Source: an uncultured Bdellovibrionales bacterium (GTDB taxonomy: Bacteria; Bdellovibrionota_C; UBA2361; SZUA-149; DAOLCO01). From it: a DNA stretch of 64,000 bases. Where the stretch lies: the NCBI GenBank assembly GCA_964612555.1, contig CAZTBW010000004.1, positions 123,713 through 187,712 of the forward strand, written 5' to 3'. Shown one piece after another: positions 21,833 through 41,876 of this stretch (the first letter of the stretch is position 1; each line of letters starts with the position of its first letter). A model generated the notes under the pieces. That model was given only the letters and a program-made list of their open reading frames with translations, was not told the DNA's origin and made no database searches. The translations under genes and the position numbers were made by a program.

Positions 21833-21905
21833 GGGGCGTTAGCTCAGTCGGTAGAGCAGCAGCCTTTTAAGTTGCGGGTCACTGGTTCGAATCCAGTACG
21901 CCTCA
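21833..21905 (+). tRNA. tRNA-Lys (anticodon TTT)
   Basis: GGGGCGTTAGCTCAGTCGGTAGAGCAGCAGCCTTTTAAGTTGCGGGTCACTGGTTCGAATCCAGTACGCCTCA; cloverleaf with GTTCGAATC T-loop, anticodon loop CTTTTAA. Confidence 0.9.
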
Positions 21906-35001: not shown

Positions 35002-37515
35002 ATGAAATCCTTTATCCTGAAACTATCCCTAAAGGATGGAATTAGACAGAAAGTCTCACTCTCAATTCTTTCTTCCTGCTGCATCCTCGCCACCGCCGCT
35101 CTGCTTGCGATCCTTTCTCTGAAGGCAAACATCAGCAGTGCCATTGAAGAAAACTCCAAATCTCTTCTGGGGGCAGACTTTGTTATATCCAGCAGACATG
35201 CACCTCTGCCTGAAACCGAAGTGTTCTTATCGGAGATTGAAAAACATACAAACTCAAAACCGCTTCTATCAAAAGAAATAGCCTTTGCTTCAATGGCACT
35301 ATTCAAGGAAAGCATGCGCAGTCGTCTGGTTCAGATCAGCGCTATCTCAGCTCCCTTTCCCTTGTATGGCACTCTTAAGATTGAACCGCCGGAGAGTACC
35401 TTCCTTGAAAGCGAAAACCGACATGCCCTTGTTGATCTTTCACTAAAAAGTCAGTTCAACCTGAGCACCGGACAGACTATTCAACTTGGAAACACAGAAT
35501 TTATCATCAGCGGTTTTATCGCTCAACTCCCGGGAGGCACCGAAGCAGGGGCGACACTGGCACCACGAATATTGATTCCATTATCACAGCTGGAATCAAC
35601 AAATTTGATACAAAAAGGGAGTATCGTACGTTATAAATATTTATATAAACTTCCCGTACACACCCCAATCAGCCGGGTCAAGAATCAACTACAGGAAAAA
35701 ATCACAGCACTAAATCTTTCTCTTGAAACGTACGAAGATCGGGCTGAAAGCCTGGAACGAAATATATCAATAGTGTACCGTTTTTTTGATAGCAGCACCA
35801 TTCTCAGCTTTCTCCTTGGTGGGATTGGAATATGGAGCGGAGCCCTTGTATATTTAAGGAAAAAAAGAAATTTTCTTGAGACACTATATCTCCTTGGTCT
35901 TAACAGAAAACAAATTCTGACAATACTCGGTTTTCAAATTTTCACCTTTGGCGCAGTAAGTACCATTATCGGGTGCGGGCTCGGCATACTTGTTCAGTAT
36001 ATTCTCCCAAAAATTATCTCAAACTTCACCCCGGTAGAGATTCCTTTCTTTATTTCCTGGAGTTCTCTCTTGTTGACCGTAACAAGCAGTATCTGGATTC
36101 TATTGATCTCCTCCTACCTTGCATTCTATACTCTTCAGCAGAGATCACATACTAATAGACATAAATTCCTCATTCCTGTACTGCTGCTTGCAGGCACTAC
36201 CTTACTCTGGCTTTTACTTATAACCGGGAGTGTTCTTACTTCGATCATATATACCGGATTTAGTATCATATTTTTTGGAATTCTATTCGGGATTTCATAT
36301 GTACTCAGAAAACTTGCCCGAAAAGTATCTTCTCACTTGCTTCACTTCCCCCTTTCACAGGGCATTAAAAATCTCTATCGTCCTTATAACCAGACCCTAA
36401 CATTACTGATTTCGATAGGCATAGTCTCTTTTTCTGCACTATTTATACTTATCACTCAAAGTAGTGCCATAAAAAAACTTGAATTACTCGAGACAGAAGG
36501 TATTTCTAACCTTCTGCTGTTCGATATTCAGGATGATCAGGTTGAGGAGCTATTTTCATTCCTGAAAGAGCACAAGCTCCCGGCAGTTTCACACGTACCC
36601 GTCATTACCATGCGAATGACAGAGGTAAAAGGAAATCGCATAGAAGAAATCAGAAAGAAAAATGAAATAGAAAAGAAAATCCCCACCTGGGTTCTCACAA
36701 GAGAATATCGCTCCAGTTACAAACCCCAACTTGATGAAAGCGAAATAGTCACAGAAGGAAATTATATTGGACGCTGGGATACTTCAGAAACAAACCCCAT
36801 ACCAATTTCCGTTGAAAAAGGGATTGTTGACAAACTCGAACTATCTTTAGGTGATAAAATACGTTTCTCCGTCCAGGGAGTTGAAATAGAAACTTTTGTT
36901 TCCAGCATACGAAAAGTAAACTGGCAACAGTTTAAACCAAACTTTTTCATACTGTTTCCCGAAGGAGCTCTCGAAGGAGCGCCTCAGACAAGCATCATAT
37001 CCACAAGATATGATTCCCAGGAACAGAATGCGATTTTTCAAAATGAACTCGTACAAAAATTTGGTAACATCTCGGCAATAGATCTTGAACTTGTAATAGC
37101 CACTGCCCGATCTATTTCATCCCAGTTGAAAAACACCGTTTTATTTCTGAGCCTGATCATTATCTCAAGTGCCCTGGTAATTCTTTCCGGTATTATCTGG
37201 GCAAGCAGAGCAAGCAGAACTGAAGAGAGCGTACTCCTGAGAACCCTTGGTGCTCAAAGAAACACTCTCATCTCAATGCTCTTTTACGAATATTTCGCAC
37301 TGGGAGTACTTGGCAGCTTTGCCGGTGCCATAATAGCTTTTGGTGCGGGAGCTGTTTTTTCCACGTATTTTCTTGAAACGCCTTTATTTATTCCCTTTAT
37401 ACCCAGTTTTCTAACTTTTTTAACGATAATTCTGGTGGTTATCATCCTTGGCTCACTTGGTGCGATTGGTACCCTGAGAAAAGGTACAATAGAGTCATAC
37501 AGAGCCCTTGAATAA
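35002..37515 (+). CDS. ABC transporter permease, FtsX-like with two FtsX domains (YbbP-like)
   Basis: 837 aa; duplicated 4-TM FtsX-type modules separated by large periplasmic domains; adjacent to ATPase. Confidence 0.75.
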   Translation: MKSFILKLSLKDGIRQKVSLSILSSCCILATAALLAILSLKANISSAIEENSKSLLGADFVISSRHAPLPETEVFLSEIEKHTNSKPLLSKEIAFASMALFKESMRSRLVQISAISAPFPLYGTLKIEPPESTFLESENRHALVDLSLKSQFNLSTGQTIQLGNTEFIISGFIAQLPGGTEAGATLAPRILIPLSQLESTNLIQKGSIVRYKYLYKLPVHTPISRVKNQLQEKITALNLSLETYEDRAESLERNISIVYRFFDSSTILSFLLGGIGIWSGALVYLRKKRNFLETLYLLGLNRKQILTILGFQIFTFGAVSTIIGCGLGILVQYILPKIISNFTPVEIPFFISWSSLLLTVTSSIWILLISSYLAFYTLQQRSHTNRHKFLIPVLLLAGTTLLWLLLITGSVLTSIIYTGFSIIFFGILFGISYVLRKLARKVSSHLLHFPLSQGIKNLYRPYNQTLTLLISIGIVSFSALFILITQSSAIKKLELLETEGISNLLLFDIQDDQVEELFSFLKEHKLPAVSHVPVITMRMTEVKGNRIEEIRKKNEIEKKIPTWVLTREYRSSYKPQLDESEIVTEGNYIGRWDTSETNPIPISVEKGIVDKLELSLGDKIRFSVQGVEIETFVSSIRKVNWQQFKPNFFILFPEGALEGAPQTSIISTRYDSQEQNAIFQNELVQKFGNISAIDLELVIATARSISSQLKNTVLFLSLIIISSALVILSGIIWASRASRTEESVLLRTLGAQRNTLISMLFYEYFALGVLGSFAGAIIAFGAGAVFSTYFLETPLFIPFIPSFLTFLTIILVVIILGSLGAIGTLRKGTIESYRALE

Positions 37516-37578
37516 CTAAATTACCTCTTTTTCCTCTTTGTTCTTAACACCGGGGAACAAACGTGGCATAATAATGGT

Positions 37579-38007
37579 ATGAGAGAATTGACGAACAAAG
37601 TTTTCACCTCGCTTCTTAGCTTTATGCTTGTTCCTGCAATAAGCTGTGTTTGTTGTGAGGTCTCTCATGCTGAAAGCAGTAAAGATCACTGCTGCCATGA
37701 TGAAGTAGAAACTCACGGCGCTTCATCTGATTCCGGATCTTCCTGTTACGGAGACTGCCTGCTTCAAGGTATCTCAAGAGAGACAAATGCCCTCCTTACC
37801 TCGTCCAAAACAAAAAATGAGTCTCTTCTCCTCCAGTCAGGAGATTCAAGTGATGGAAACAAGTTTTTAGCTCTTTCGGTTACTATACCTACCGAACTTG
37901 AAATACTTGCCGGGTATTTCCACTTCAGTGATTTTAAAATCAGCTCTGGAAACCCTGTTAAATCATCGCCTCAGCAGGGAAGATCTCCTCCACTGACTGT
38001 TCTCTAA
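37579..38007 (+). CDS. secreted Cys/His-rich small protein (metal-binding candidate)
   Basis: Signal peptide; CVCCEVSHAESSKDHCCHDEVETH...CYGDC cluster; 142 aa. Confidence 0.4.
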   Translation: MRELTNKVFTSLLSFMLVPAISCVCCEVSHAESSKDHCCHDEVETHGASSDSGSSCYGDCLLQGISRETNALLTSSKTKNESLLLQSGDSSDGNKFLALSVTIPTELEILAGYFHFSDFKISSGNPVKSSPQQGRSPPLTVL

Positions 38008-38067
38008 AGATTTCTTGAGAATAGTTATGGTTATAATTAAATTAATAGTTAGTTAGGAGATATATTT

Positions 38068-38277
38068 ATGAAACGTGCAATATTACTATCACTTGCTTTC
38101 CTTTTTGGAGCACCTTCGGCATTTGCGGGCTCTCATTGTGAAAAAAGCTGTCACAATGAGAAATGTACCTGCGAAAGCAGTTGCGAGAAGAAGGAAGAAG
38201 GTGGTGAATGTACTTGTGAAAATTGTCAGTGTGAGTGCTGTAACCATGAAAAAAAGGATAACGATTCTGCTGAATAA
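38068..38277 (+). CDS. secreted Cys-rich (metallothionein-like) small protein
   Basis: AGGAGA RBS; signal peptide then 14 Cys in 50 aa (HCEKSCHNEKCTCESSCEKK..ECTCENCQCECCNHE); followed by strong terminator. Confidence 0.55.
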   Translation: MKRAILLSLAFLFGAPSAFAGSHCEKSCHNEKCTCESSCEKKEEGGECTCENCQCECCNHEKKDNDSAE

Positions 38278-38317
38278 TTTTTACACTGAATATTTTTTCT
38301 CTGTGTGAAAATTTAAG

Positions 38318-38348
38318 GGTGACACCCTCCGGTGTCACCTTTTTTTTA
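38318..38348 (+). terminator. rho-independent terminator
   Basis: GGTGACACC-ctcc-GGTGTCACC followed by TTTTTTTTATT. Confidence 0.8.
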
Positions 38349-38383
38349 TTGCCTAATTTTTTACGGCGTTCTAGTTTGGGGAC

Positions 38384-38980
38384 ATGAATTCCTTTAATAC
38401 AAAAAAAATAACATCACTGCTCGCTCTTCTTGTCTTGTTTATTTTCGCTTACAATTCCGAGTCTCATGCCGAGGAATCTCATGCTGGAGAAAAGGGAGTA
38501 GAACTGGGTCATCATTATGAAGACCACAGCAAAACCAAAGCCCCTGAAGAAAAAAAGAAAAAGAAATCCTCATCAATCCTCTCAAAAGTAGTATTATATG
38601 TACCAAATCGAATTTTCGATTTTCTGGACATTTTCAGGTTACGGGTTCGGGTGGGTCCAGGGATTGGTCTTGGAGTTCGGGCGACTGAGCCCCTGAGCTT
38701 CTATGCCGGGTCTCATGCCACGATCTATGCAGGGCTTCCCGGTCCAAGACAGAGTCCGAGTATTCCTCTTCCAATAGGCGCAGAAACGGTTGCGGGGGGT
38801 CGGCTTAGTCTCATTGATGGAGTTATTGCTGCGGACACTTCAGCCAGACATTCTTTTAGTGAAATAGGGGTGGAAACCCAATTATTGTTAGTAGGGGTAG
38901 ATGTTGGTGTTGACCCTGTGGAGATTCTTGACTTCTTCACGGGCTTCTTTTTCATACAAATCCGGGATGATGATTTATAG
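38384..38980 (+). CDS. secreted protein with His-rich N-terminal region and Gly-rich beta-rich C-terminal domain
   Basis: Signal peptide; ESHAEESHAGEKGVELGHHYEDHSK; 198 aa. Confidence 0.4.
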   Translation: MNSFNTKKITSLLALLVLFIFAYNSESHAEESHAGEKGVELGHHYEDHSKTKAPEEKKKKKSSSILSKVVLYVPNRIFDFLDIFRLRVRVGPGIGLGVRATEPLSFYAGSHATIYAGLPGPRQSPSIPLPIGAETVAGGRLSLIDGVIAADTSARHSFSEIGVETQLLLVGVDVGVDPVEILDFFTGFFFIQIRDDDL

Positions 38981-39094: not shown

Positions 39095-40381
39095 ATGAAC
39101 GAAGTGCAGCTCCCTCAGGAAACTCTAAAAAACCTGGAGAAAAAATATTCTCTTCAATTTGAAGAATTAAAAAAAAGAAACCTCTCTCTTGACATGACAA
39201 GGGGTAAACCCGGCACCGAACAACTTAATCTTACGAATGAACTTGATGGAATTCTCCGAGGTGAGTACTTCAGTTCTTCAAACATGGACACGAGAAATTA
39301 TGGGGGACTGGACGGGCTTCCTGAAGCAAAGGAACTTTTTGCTCCTGTTCTTGGGGTTGATAAGGAAGAAATGATAGTAGCCGGTAACAGCAGTCTTACC
39401 TTGATGTACCAATATATCGACTGTGTTTTTAATCATGGGGCTTTTAATCATGGGACATCAGGAAAGGAATCTGCCTGGAAAAATATTCCTGAAGCAAGCT
39501 TCCTCTGTCCTGTTCCCGGTTATGATCGTCACTTTTCCATTTGCGAATTTCTTGGAATAAAAATGATTCCCGTTCCTTTGCTTGAGGATGGTGTAGATCT
39601 TGGCGTTATTCAGTCACTTTTGAAGTCTGATAAATCAATTTGCGGTATGTGGTCGGTACCAAAATATTCCAATCCCGGTGGAGTAGTGTACAGCCATGAA
39701 AACATTGAAGGACTTTGTGAAATCCTGAAACTTGCCCGTCCCGAGTTCAGACTGATGTGGGACAACGCCTATGCGGTTCACGATCTCCCGGAACATCCAA
39801 AGGAGCTTTCCCCGGTCTTAGCACTCGCAAAGAAATATGGTGTTGAAGACAAAGTAGTTCTCTTTGGGTCAACTTCTAAAATTACCTTTGCAGGTGCGGG
39901 AGTGGCTTTCTGTGCCATGAGCATGAAAAATCGCTCTACCTTTACCAACTACATCTCCTACCAAACCATTGGACCTGACAAAATAAATCAGCTTCGGCAC
40001 GTCGCTTTTTTCAAAAATTTTGAGAATCTGAAGCAGCATATGAAAAAGCATTCAGAAATTCTTAAACCAAAATTTGAAGCGGTACTGTCCGCACTGGAAT
40101 CTGAGTTTTCTGAATACCCCTTCCTGAAATGGACTACTCCTGAGGGGGGATATTTTATTTCTGTAGACACCCTCCCCGGACTTGCAAGTGAAGTGGTGTC
40201 TCTTTGTGATGAGATGGGGGTCAAAATTACTCCGGCGGGAGCAACGTATCCTTACAGAAAAGACCCGCACAATACGAATATCCGTCTTGCTCCCAGTTTT
40301 CCGGAAATTAAGCAAATCAGGATGGCTATGGAAGCTTTTACAACCGCAGTAGGGCTTGCAAGCACAAGAAAGCTTCTTTAA
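39095..40381 (+). CDS. PLP-dependent aminotransferase, class I/II fold
   Basis: 428 aa; fold-type I pattern with candidate PLP Lys in GSTSKITFAGAG. Confidence 0.55.
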   Translation: MNEVQLPQETLKNLEKKYSLQFEELKKRNLSLDMTRGKPGTEQLNLTNELDGILRGEYFSSSNMDTRNYGGLDGLPEAKELFAPVLGVDKEEMIVAGNSSLTLMYQYIDCVFNHGAFNHGTSGKESAWKNIPEASFLCPVPGYDRHFSICEFLGIKMIPVPLLEDGVDLGVIQSLLKSDKSICGMWSVPKYSNPGGVVYSHENIEGLCEILKLARPEFRLMWDNAYAVHDLPEHPKELSPVLALAKKYGVEDKVVLFGSTSKITFAGAGVAFCAMSMKNRSTFTNYISYQTIGPDKINQLRHVAFFKNFENLKQHMKKHSEILKPKFEAVLSALESEFSEYPFLKWTTPEGGYFISVDTLPGLASEVVSLCDEMGVKITPAGATYPYRKDPHNTNIRLAPSFPEIKQIRMAMEAFTTAVGLASTRKLL

Positions 40382-40445: not shown

Positions 40446-40850
40446 ATGAGCATAATTAAGCATTTATTTTTAGTGCTGTTATTGGCTTCGGCAGTTGCTT
40501 GTGGTGGTGGGGGCGGTGGTAGTTCTTTTTCCGGGGATTATATTTTCAAAACAAATCTTGAGTGGGATGGTTGCCGACTCAATGTTGGAATATACAGAGA
40601 AGTGCTGATCAGGGTAGATCAGGACGGAGACCGAATAGTGGTTACTAATCTTGTATCCGGAGCTGTTCTTGAAGGAACAACCGTGGGAAATGGCTGGATT
40701 GCTTCATCCAATGAATCAGAAGAAGGCTGCATATCCTCAGTCCAGATGGCGTACAATGGCGATGACAAAGGTTCACTGACTGCTTCCGTAAACTGCTCAG
40801 GAGGCGGCTCTTGCGTTACAGAATATTCTGCAATTGTAGACAGGCTTTAA
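40446..40850 (+). CDS. lipoprotein with Gly-rich linker, unknown
   Basis: Signal peptide ...SAVAC followed by GGGGGGSS; 134 aa. Confidence 0.4.
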   Translation: MSIIKHLFLVLLLASAVACGGGGGGSSFSGDYIFKTNLEWDGCRLNVGIYREVLIRVDQDGDRIVVTNLVSGAVLEGTTVGNGWIASSNESEEGCISSVQMAYNGDDKGSLTASVNCSGGGSCVTEYSAIVDRL

Positions 40851-40982: not shown

Positions 40983-41876
40983 TTATCTCTTGCTCGCACT
41001 TGCAACGTGGAGCTTCACGTTTTCTTCTTTCTGGGTATCCCCATCATGGGTATTCCCAGTGGAAGAAAAGCCTTTTAAATAAGCACTCACAGTGCCGACA
41101 AATACTTCGGTTTCAATTTTAAGAACGTCCCTGCTCTCATCAGCAGCTATCCATATTTCTGCTTTCCTGAAGCGTTTTTCTCCTTCAGTGTCAGTAAGTT
41201 TTTTAAGTGAGGGAATCACTTTATATGCTTTTCTCTTCAGTTTTTGACCAGGGAGGGAAATATCCTCTATAGACGTCACTTCAAACGAAATAAGATAGCG
41301 GTTTTTTGCATTATAGACATCAAACGAAGCCTTCTGCCCAATCTTTATGGGAATACTTCTGGCAAGAAACGCTGCTGAGATAGGGTCCAGAGTTTGATTA
41401 TTGGTAACAAACTCCCTCTCTTCTTCGAGCTTGCCATTTTTCTCAAGAACAGAACGTATATGACCATCATCGCCAAAAGTGATTTCACTGCTTTTCTTTC
41501 TTGAGTTCTCGGTCTGGTTAAAGGAAAAGCGAATTGGCTTAAGATTGTCTTTATAAAACAAGCTGTGACTTGTATGACGAAGCTTGTAAAATATCCCGAT
41601 AACCTTATTTGTTTTGGCGTTTGCTTCTACAAAATAGGCATCTGCCGAATCGACTTCTTTATCCTGAACATTAATTGAAGCCGACGCAACCGGGATACCT
41701 TGCCAGCTTACTTCATACTCAAAAACACCCTTGTTAAATTCAGTGGTGTGAGGTGTGTAGTGTTCTGTTTGAACACGGACAGAGGCTGGATCAATATATT
41801 CAGAACTGACTGCACCACTGATACAAAAAATCAGAGCACCTGTTAGCAACACAAGAATGAATAATTTTTTCGACAT
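40983..41876 (-). CDS. secreted protein, possibly DUF3108-like
   Basis: Signal peptide; beta-rich 297 aa; motif YEVSWQGIPVASASI. Confidence 0.35.
   Translation of the reverse strand: MSKKLFILVLLTGALIFCISGAVSSEYIDPASVRVQTEHYTPHTTEFNKGVFEYEVSWQGIPVASASINVQDKEVDSADAYFVEANAKTNKVIGIFYKLRHTSHSLFYKDNLKPIRFSFNQTENSRKKSSEITFGDDGHIRSVLEKNGKLEEEREFVTNNQTLDPISAAFLARSIPIKIGQKASFDVYNAKNRYLISFEVTSIEDISLPGQKLKRKAYKVIPSLKKLTDTEGEKRFRKAEIWIAADESRDVLKIETEVFVGTVSAYLKGFSSTGNTHDGDTQKEENVKLHVASASKR

Follow-up and report, generated by a model that had tools for sequence, protein, structure and literature searches.

Two adjacent forward-strand genes, here called P1 and P2, in a 64,000-nucleotide stretch of contig CAZTBW010000004.1 (assembly GCA_964612555.1) from an uncultured Bdellovibrionales bacterium, the whole of which we refer to as the window, make up a self-contained two-gene operon (positions 37544-38350) that is found in a few uncultured Oligoflexia/Bdellovibrionota-like bacteria. 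P1 is a Cys-cluster protein with a hydrophobic N-terminal segment and P2 is the precursor of a small, predicted secreted, metallothionein-like peptide. We put at about even odds (roughly 0.5) the reading, drawn from their sequences, that together they form an exported, thiolate-based pair for binding soft metals, with copper as the first guess. The initial annotation of this region had described three consecutive Cys/His-rich secreted proteins as a possible metal-handling islet. The three forward-strand open reading frames (ORFs) that it named are all present (Table 1), and the third of them, P3, proves to be independent of the other two.

The leader of the P2 precursor comprises a Lys-Arg n-region, a hydrophobic core and an A-x-A site, features that recur in all eight P2-type sequences, and it carries no twin arginine and is therefore of the Sec type. 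All 11 Cys of the window's P2 (the initial annotation had counted 14) lie within the 49 residues that follow the signal peptidase-type site AFA/G, where the slash marks the predicted cut. This mature part is 22% Cys, contains no aromatic and a single hydrophobic residue, and has an isoelectric point (pI) of 4.8. Throughout the family the predicted mature peptide is 44-51 residues long, 16-25% of them Cys, with aromatic residues absent and hydrophobic ones numbering three at most, and the pI falls between 4.4 and 4.9 in seven of the eight members. Judged by its sequence, P2 thus answers to the compositional definition of a metallothionein (low mass, high Cys content, no aromatics, CxC, CxxC and CC arrays), which agrees with the metallothionein-like character first proposed for it.

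The Cys positions are conserved to differing degrees with distance. All 11 are invariant in the window and its two nearest syntenic relatives, while eight, spaced as C-x4-C-x-C ... C-x-C-E-x-C-x-C-x2-C, are invariant over seven sequences. A single sequence contains 8, 9, 11 or 12 Cys in all, an odd number in six of the eight, which argues against a closed intramolecular disulfide framework in P2. Such a variable number would fit the plasticity of metal-thiolate clusters. Immediately after the A-x-A cleavage site, as predicted by eye, seven of the eight members begin with X-X-His (GSH, DSH, DNH or DHH) and the eighth begins with His. At the predicted mature N-terminus this is the amino-terminal copper- and nickel-binding (ATCUN) pattern, which calls for a free amine and His at position 3, and is a candidate site for Cu(II) or Ni(II).

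P1 shares with P2 the density of thiols. Its n-region carries Lys or Arg and is followed in all members by a hydrophobic run of 17-23 residues, at the end of which stands the CxCC group. Residues C23, C25, C26, A31, C56 and C60 are invariant in the eight aligned sequences, and in the three closest versions all seven Cys are kept together with H30 and H46. An invariant small-x-Ala (SHA, AHA or VEA) that resembles a signal peptidase I site is positioned five residues past CxCC. The central CC[HK][DE]E group is found in most members, the C-x3-C group reads CxxDCLLQ in the near relatives, and a variable, Ser-rich stretch separates it from the C-terminal motif. The cluster CVCCEVSHA...HCCHDEVETH...CYGDC, to which the initial annotation had drawn attention, is therefore present. 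Its orthologues retain it, as do those of P2: 7 and 11 Cys, respectively, are invariant in the two nearest syntenic relatives, and the eight P2 Cys together with CxCC and C-x3-C of P1 are invariant across the family, where loss of the clusters had been named beforehand as the outcome that would speak against a metal-related role.

Searches of P1 against Pfam, NCBIfam and PDB gave no match, and neither P1 nor P2 belongs to a non-metal family by the same profile searches. Full-length P2 found nothing in Pfam at E (expectation value) 0.1, while mature P2 and P1 found nothing there at E up to 10 except one chance match. The P2 family profile found no relative among PDB chains at E up to 10, solved metallothioneins included. 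An hhalign comparison of the P1 and P2 profiles revealed no relation between them, so the pair is not a duplication. Two other assignments of P1 were tried and rejected. The residue before the first invariant Cys is Ser or Gly in five sequences and Thr, Asn or Tyr in three, so that the lipobox [LVI][ASTVI][GAS]C is no conserved feature, and the assignment of P1 as a lipoprotein was dropped; the reading of its CCH as a heme-binding CxxCH was rejected by inspection. The unit S-H-A-E occurs at the likely signal peptidase sites of both P1 (EVSHA/E, 37654-37674) and P3 (SESHA/EESHA/GE, 38456-38485) of the window. It is duplicated in P3 and is not conserved in P3 relatives, and its occurrence in both proteins is probably a coincidence.

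Counts over the whole proteins are 7 Cys and 5 His for P1, 11 Cys and 3 His for P2, and 7 His with no Cys for P3. Elsewhere this genome uses Cys very sparingly. Relative to the Cys share of the long ORFs in the window (0.99%), the binomial probability of at least 11 Cys in the 49-residue mature P2 is 2e-12 and that of at least 7 Cys in the 38-residue P1 cluster is 9e-8. The Cys enrichment of both proteins is far above chance.

The transcriptional signals around P1 and P2 delimit the pair. A consensus scan identified a promoter-like site just upstream of P1 with 10 of 12 consensus matches and a TG extension. In all seven aligned loci (the window and those labelled L001, L003, L091, L093, L089 and L088) a TAnAAT box ends 5-7 nucleotides before the P1 ATG and no Shine-Dalgarno sequence is present, a spacing that suggests translation of P1 from a leaderless mRNA. 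P2 is preceded in all loci by GGAG or AGGA at 7-9 nucleotides from its start. The terminator that the initial annotation placed after P2 was recovered by a terminator scan (a stem of 12 pairs, then a T run), and a hairpin with a U run about 20 nucleotides past the P2 stop occurs at five of the seven loci; at L089 the hairpin is strong and the U tract weaker. The promoter alignment contains no shared operator or dyad other than the -10 box, and a TTGTTC...GAACAA dyad around the -35 element of the window is not conserved in the other loci.

The two genes also travel together. A P1 homologue lies immediately 5' of the P2 homologue at every locus where upstream DNA is present, counting the window, L001, L003/L004, L091/L092, L093/L095, L089 and L088/L094; L090 begins too near its P2 homologue for the upstream gene to be judged. 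The pair is thus kept in at least seven lineages although both flanks differ. The upstream neighbour is ybbP in the window, L001, L003/L004, L091/L092 and L093/L095; L089 has a NUDIX gene there and L094 one of the GDSL type. On the downstream side the window, L001, L003 and L091 carry P3 and an aminotransferase gene, L089 and L095 have rpsI-rplM on the opposite strand, and in L088 a flagellin gene follows. Syntenic relatives with all three genes include the metagenome contigs L001 and L003/L004. L089 belongs to an Oligoflexia metagenome-assembled genome (MAG; GCA_035324615.1), the only named carrier, in which the P1 and P2 homologues are both annotated as hypothetical. At L088 (666-1080) and L094 (7001-7571) the P1-like gene is split, with the N-terminal Cys part in one frame and a C-terminal ARSPPWHAI-stop in another. 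The two assemblies differ by an indel inside this gene, and a frameshift, gene decay or faulty assembly could explain the split.

The family to which the pair belongs is very rare and confined to uncultured bacteria. An exhaustive HMMER search of 1.84 billion cluster representatives (50%-identity clusters) with the P2 profile recovered only four P2-type proteins, all hypothetical, of 63-73 residues and consisting of a signal peptide and a Cys-rich mature part; none has a relative in Pfam, NCBIfam or PDB. Word-index searches with P1 and with P2 returned the query and one relative only, and metagenome scans, first with the alignment of P2 and later with that of P1, gave pattern matches of which none was confirmed by tblastn. 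The exact P2 sequence of the window was found only in a Logan read assembly, whereas P1 and P3 are also in the NCBI record, so that this 69-residue gene was probably missed by the annotation of the deposited genome. P1 and P2 are real genes under purifying selection, which is strong for P2. Synonymous sites are saturated among the window, L001 and L003/L004 genomes (proportion of synonymous differences, pS, 0.62-0.85), while the ratio of nonsynonymous to synonymous change (dN/dS) of P2 is 0.05-0.14 relative to the two syntenic relatives at 63-79% amino-acid identity, a conservation similar to that of the neighbouring aminotransferase. For P1 dN/dS is about 0.25 and the conserved positions are concentrated in the motifs.

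Taken together these features suggest how an exported metal-binding pair might work, where export, the cleavage sites, metal binding, the metal itself and the role of P1 are inferred from sequence. P2 would leave the cytoplasm through Sec, lose its leader by a cut after A-x-A and be released as an acidic peptide of about 49 residues. Its 8-12 Cys, which form two groups of CxC, CxxC and CC arrays with a charged linker between them, would wrap soft metals as metal-thiolate clusters. The X-X-His N-terminus could capture Cu(II) or Ni(II), after which the thiols would reduce Cu(II) and hold the product as Cu(I)-thiolate. It is this ATCUN-type site that makes copper the first guess. Zn, Cd or Ni are alternatives to copper, and on composition alone M3-4Cys8-11 clusters of Zn or Cd are as possible as Cu clusters. 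P1 would be held at, or released from, the inner membrane through the N-terminal hydrophobic segment that ends in CxCC, would carry its other CC and C-x3-C groups on a disordered chain in the periplasm, and would most likely act as a membrane-proximal donor, acceptor or chaperone for the metal of P2. The CxCC group is a metal site elsewhere, in the Cu4 cluster of periplasmic CopG (PMC7558416) and as a Zn site in the COG0523 chaperones (PMC11672702).

Several observations weigh against this proposal. Profile and PDB searches connect P2 by sequence with none of the known metallothioneins or copper proteins, the pair is accompanied by no metal-related gene, regulator or operator in the three contexts examined, and the promoter looks constitutive. 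If P1 is cleaved after its small-x-Ala, the CxCC group is lost with the signal peptide. The AlphaFold2 model of P1 (from seven sequences) is uninformative, with a predicted local distance difference test score (pLDDT) of 43.6 and only the N-terminal helix predicted; this low confidence could indicate disorder or a shallow alignment. The family is so small that covariation and context statistics are weak. The periplasm is oxidising, and the Cys of P2 could simply be disulfide-bonded there. An ATCUN-type N-terminus is in fact also present on disulfide-rich secreted peptides such as hepcidin, in which it is combined with four disulfides.

The last two points are shared by what we consider an unlikely, though the leading, alternative, namely that P2 is a disulfide-stabilised secreted mini-protein with a role unrelated to metals (a signal, an antimicrobial or anti-prey agent, an adhesive or a structural element) and P1 its partner for maturation, anchoring or immunity. 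The Sec-type signal peptide would deliver P2 to an oxidising compartment, its eight invariant Cys are even in number and could form four disulfides, hepcidin offers a precedent for such a framework behind an ATCUN-type end, metal genes accompany the pair in no context, and the best PDB match, although non-significant, is a disulfide-rich scorpion toxin (E 0.48). However, the total of Cys varies from 8 to 12 and is mostly odd, and dense alternating arrays such as CxCxxCxCxCC are typical of thiolate clusters. P2 is moreover acidic, rich in Glu and Lys and nearly free of hydrophobic residues, unlike membrane-active peptides, and no double-glycine leader, C39 peptidase exporter or other dedicated exporter, immunity gene or immunity-like membrane protein accompanies it, which also speaks against the bacteriocin-like peptide that the initial annotation had offered as an alternative. 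It is improbable, in our view, that the pair is instead a periplasmic thiol or redox device, either a sacrificial buffer against oxidants and electrophiles or a carrier of sulfane sulfur or As(III). The very high thiol density of both proteins, their vicinal CC pairs and the constitutive-looking promoter without a metal operator would suit such a device, and metallothioneins are also known as radical scavengers, yet the genes have no linked reductase or Dsb/Ccd-type partner for recycling the thiols, and Cu(II) or Ni(II) is what the conserved X-X-His at the N-terminus suggests.

Two further explanations extend the unit beyond P1 and P2. That all three genes, P3 with its His-rich N-terminus included, form one metal-handling islet, as first proposed, now seems very improbable. 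P1, P2 and P3 are adjacent and co-oriented in four lineages (the window, L001, L003/L004 and L091/L092), LGHHYE[ED][HY]SK recurs in the nearest P3 relatives, and a secreted 16-Cys protein is encoded just 5' of one P3 homologue (L052). The strong terminator separates P2 from P3, however, P3 does not follow P2 in L089, L095 and L088, the P3 family has no conserved neighbour across 88 loci, the His stretch is missing in most P3 relatives including the one in L003 that adjoins P1 and P2, and P3 shows a weak relation to a family of outer-membrane adhesins. The least probable of the alternatives has P1 and P2 serve the adjacent YbbP-like, MacB-type ATP-binding cassette (ABC) transporter as substrates or accessories. 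An example of such export is MacAB-TolC of E. coli, through which the Cys-rich enterotoxin STII leaves the periplasm. The permease gene, overlooked when the initial annotation stated that no transporter was attached, ends 63 nucleotides before P1 with no terminator between them, an arrangement repeated in five of the seven lineages (the window, L001, L003/L004, L091/L092 and L093/L095). On the other hand tesA (reverse strand), ybbA and ybbP constitute a widely conserved housekeeping cluster, the P1-P2 unit has its own promoter-like site, and L089 and L094 have the pair but not the transporter. Binding of soft metals by an exported P1-P2 pair remains the reading that we prefer.

P3 itself belongs to a widespread uncharacterised family. 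We count 82 homologues, and genome loci were confirmed at 169 places distributed over Bdellovibrionota, Desulfobacterota, Verrucomicrobiota/Kiritimatiellia/Lentisphaerota, Planctomycetota and Myxococcota; the nearest named homologues, 45-48% identical, come from Bdellovibrionales MAGs. What the family conserves is a C-terminal stretch of 140 residues (YxPNRxxDxxDxxR...GPG...GLPGPR...DPxE...DDL, with C-terminal DD[LF]), and some members carry a lipobox in place of the A-x-A site. The His-rich sequence ESHAEESHAGE...GHHYEDH, which had prompted a metal-related reading of P3, is present and residues 23-50 contain five of the His, but that reading finds no support in what is a variable linker, modelled at low confidence and absent from almost all of 26 aligned relatives, the L003 copy beside P1 and P2 included; LGHHYE[ED][HY]SK recurs only in the nearest relatives. 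The AlphaFold2 model (pLDDT 75.8) begins with the signal peptide and the linker, whose residues 28-43 score below 50, continues with a helix and eight strands and closes with another helix; it matches no fold in PDB.

P3 has no family match in Pfam. In NCBIfam its C-terminal 35 residues weakly match LIC13411_adhesin (NF047817; E 0.002, 18.3 bits), as do 20 of the 26 members (best E 7.5e-6). The likeness to this Leptospira adhesin comprises length, export and the weak match over the C-terminal DPxE...DDL end. LIC13411 fractionates with the Leptospira outer membrane (PMC9354625). P3 falls far below the 150-bit cutoff of the model, which suggests at most a distant superfamily relation and no membership. 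VE-cadherin binding by LIC13411 is specific to the pathogen. All-against-all clustering of neighbours over the 88 loci gave no recurrent partner, and P3 is missing beside P1 and P2 in the three lineages named above. P3 is probably an exported, outer-membrane-associated protein unrelated to the Cys proteins P1 and P2. Immediately 5' of the P3 homologue in a Lentisphaeraceae MAG (L052 5196-5621, CAYZQL010000074.1) lies a gene for an unrelated secreted protein of 141 residues with 16 Cys in three C..C...GKC.CGKE-type repeats and no Pfam match.

The surroundings of the operon are listed in Table 1. Pfam and NCBIfam profile searches identify the genes upstream of P1 as a tesA/ybbA/ybbP arrangement, and between about 25.6 and 45 kb of the window there is no metal transporter, metal sensor or redox enzyme. 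PADLOC gave no match for P1, P2 or P3, and PHROGs matched only P3, non-significantly (E 0.066). An Rfam scan found no RNA element in the P1-P3 region; the RNase P RNA and two tRNA genes are its sole matches within the 64-kb window. Elsewhere in the window a flagellin of 678 residues (25671-27707, reverse strand) has PD40/WD40-like beta-propeller repeats inserted between its Flagellin_N and Flagellin_C domains. A small lipoprotein-like ORF without a family match (40446-40850, forward strand) encodes a lipobox followed by CGGGGGGSS and lies beside a gene for a DUF3108 protein (40983-41876, reverse strand), the latter keeping its synteny in the relatives L001 and L005.

Table 1. Features of the P1-P2 operon and its surroundings (window positions)
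Feature	Position	Strand	Description
Promoter-like site	37544-37572	+	TTAACA, 17 nucleotides, (TG)gCATAAT; -10 box ends 6 nucleotides before P1 ATG; putative function
P1	37579-38007	+	142-residue Cys-cluster protein, conserved partner of P2; from ORF list
P1 residues 8-26	37600-37656	+	Hydrophobic, as signal peptide or as membrane anchor; invariant C23-x-C25-C26 at its end
P1 residues 23-60	37645-37758	+	Cys/His cluster CxCC-x3-HA ... CC[HK][DE]E ... C-x3-C-LLQ
P1 residues 133-138	37975-37992	+	C-terminal motif QGRSPP; family form R-[S/G]-P-P, 3-5 residues, stop
P2 Shine-Dalgarno	38056-38059	+	GGAG, 8 nucleotides before P2 ATG; read from sequence
P2	38068-38277	+	69-residue precursor of predicted secreted metallothionein-like peptide; from ORF list
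P2 signal peptide, residues 1-20	38068-38127	+	MKRAILLSLAFLFGAPSAFA; KR n-region, hydrophobic core, A-x-A; predicted cleavage
P2 mature peptide, 49 residues	38128-38274	+	GSH-C-x3-C-x4-C-x-C-x3-C-linker-C-x-C-x2-C-x-C-x-CC
Intrinsic terminator	38315-38350	+	Closes P1-P2 unit; 12-pair stem (38315-38342), 4-nucleotide loop, T run; terminator scan
P3	38384-38980	+	198 residues, predicted exported, widespread uncharacterised family; adjoins P1-P2, no part of the unit
P3 residues 25-48	38456-38527	+	His-rich linker SESHAEESHAGEKGVELGHHYEDH; lineage-specific, not conserved in family alignment
GDSL lipase gene	33572-34261	-	Upstream of P1; tesA position
ABC ATPase gene	34310-34993		Upstream of P1; ybbA position
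FtsX/MacB-type permease gene	35002-37515		Upstream of P1; 837 residues, matches YbbP
Type Ic aspartate aminotransferase gene	39095-40381		Downstream of P3
RNase P RNA (class A)	14526-14871	-	Rfam
tRNA gene	21833-21905	+	Rfam
tRNA gene	29509-29581	-	Rfam

More tentatively, and with less confidence than we place in metal binding as such, P1 and P2 may represent an undescribed envelope metal system in which an exported metallothionein, with ATCUN capture feeding a thiolate cluster, is coupled to a membrane-tethered CxCC protein and expressed from a leaderless, apparently constitutive operon. If so, this would be the first periplasmic metallothionein pair, found in Oligoflexia-like bacteria, and sequestration in thiolate clusters would be used in the oxidising envelope too, raising the question of how the P2 thiols stay reduced or metal-loaded, and with which metal. 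A natural metal-binding module of about 49 residues would also be very small and of use in biotechnology. All members of the family are annotated as hypothetical and the P2 gene of the window was seemingly not called, an example of how small Cys-rich genes escape annotation.

Few bacterial metallothioneins are known, and periplasmic metal buffering is credited to folded proteins such as CusF, CopC, CopG and Csp1. Csp1, which is exported, thiolate-rich and a proposed periplasmic Cu(I) holder (PMC7558416), resembles P2, itself predicted to be exported, in the first two respects. It is, however, a Cys-lined four-helix bundle that is exported pre-folded by the twin-arginine translocation (Tat) pathway, assembles into tetramers and binds 13 Cu(I) per monomer, whereas P2 is a peptide of 44-51 residues with a Sec-type leader, no twin arginine, no helix-bundle pattern and no Pfam match. 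In the DUF411 protein CopG, a CxCC motif and two Met bind a tetranuclear Cu cluster in the periplasm (PMC7558416), and CxCC is likewise invariant in the eight P1 sequences. The CopG motif is embedded in a thioredoxin-like domain, while that of P1 ends a hydrophobic segment followed by a chain that is predicted to be disordered, and P1 has no DUF411, other Pfam or other sequence match.

The arrangement of the pair recalls that of MerP/MerT-type pairs, in which an exported soluble Cys protein is encoded beside a membrane protein whose vicinal Cys lie at the face of the membrane. The resemblance would be one of functional analogy only, with no homology and neither MerA nor MerR near P1 and P2, and P1, having one hydrophobic segment, is not a transporter. 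In composition P2 resembles the metallothioneins, of which SmtA/BmtA and MymT are bacterial examples and with which it has in common its small size (about 5 kDa when mature), 16-25% Cys, CxC, CxxC and CC arrays, the absence of aromatics, two Cys groups joined by a linker and a Cys total that is plastic among relatives. P2 matches neither the SmtA/BmtA profile (PF02069) nor a solved structure. A 2024 review gives bacterial metallothionein only as a cytoplasmic device, and in the literature searched we found neither the phrase "periplasmic metallothionein" nor a native exported bacterial metallothionein. Known bacterial metallothioneins are described as cytoplasmic, whereas all eight P2-type sequences bear a predicted export signal and, unlike known metallothioneins, P2 is always paired with a P1 gene.

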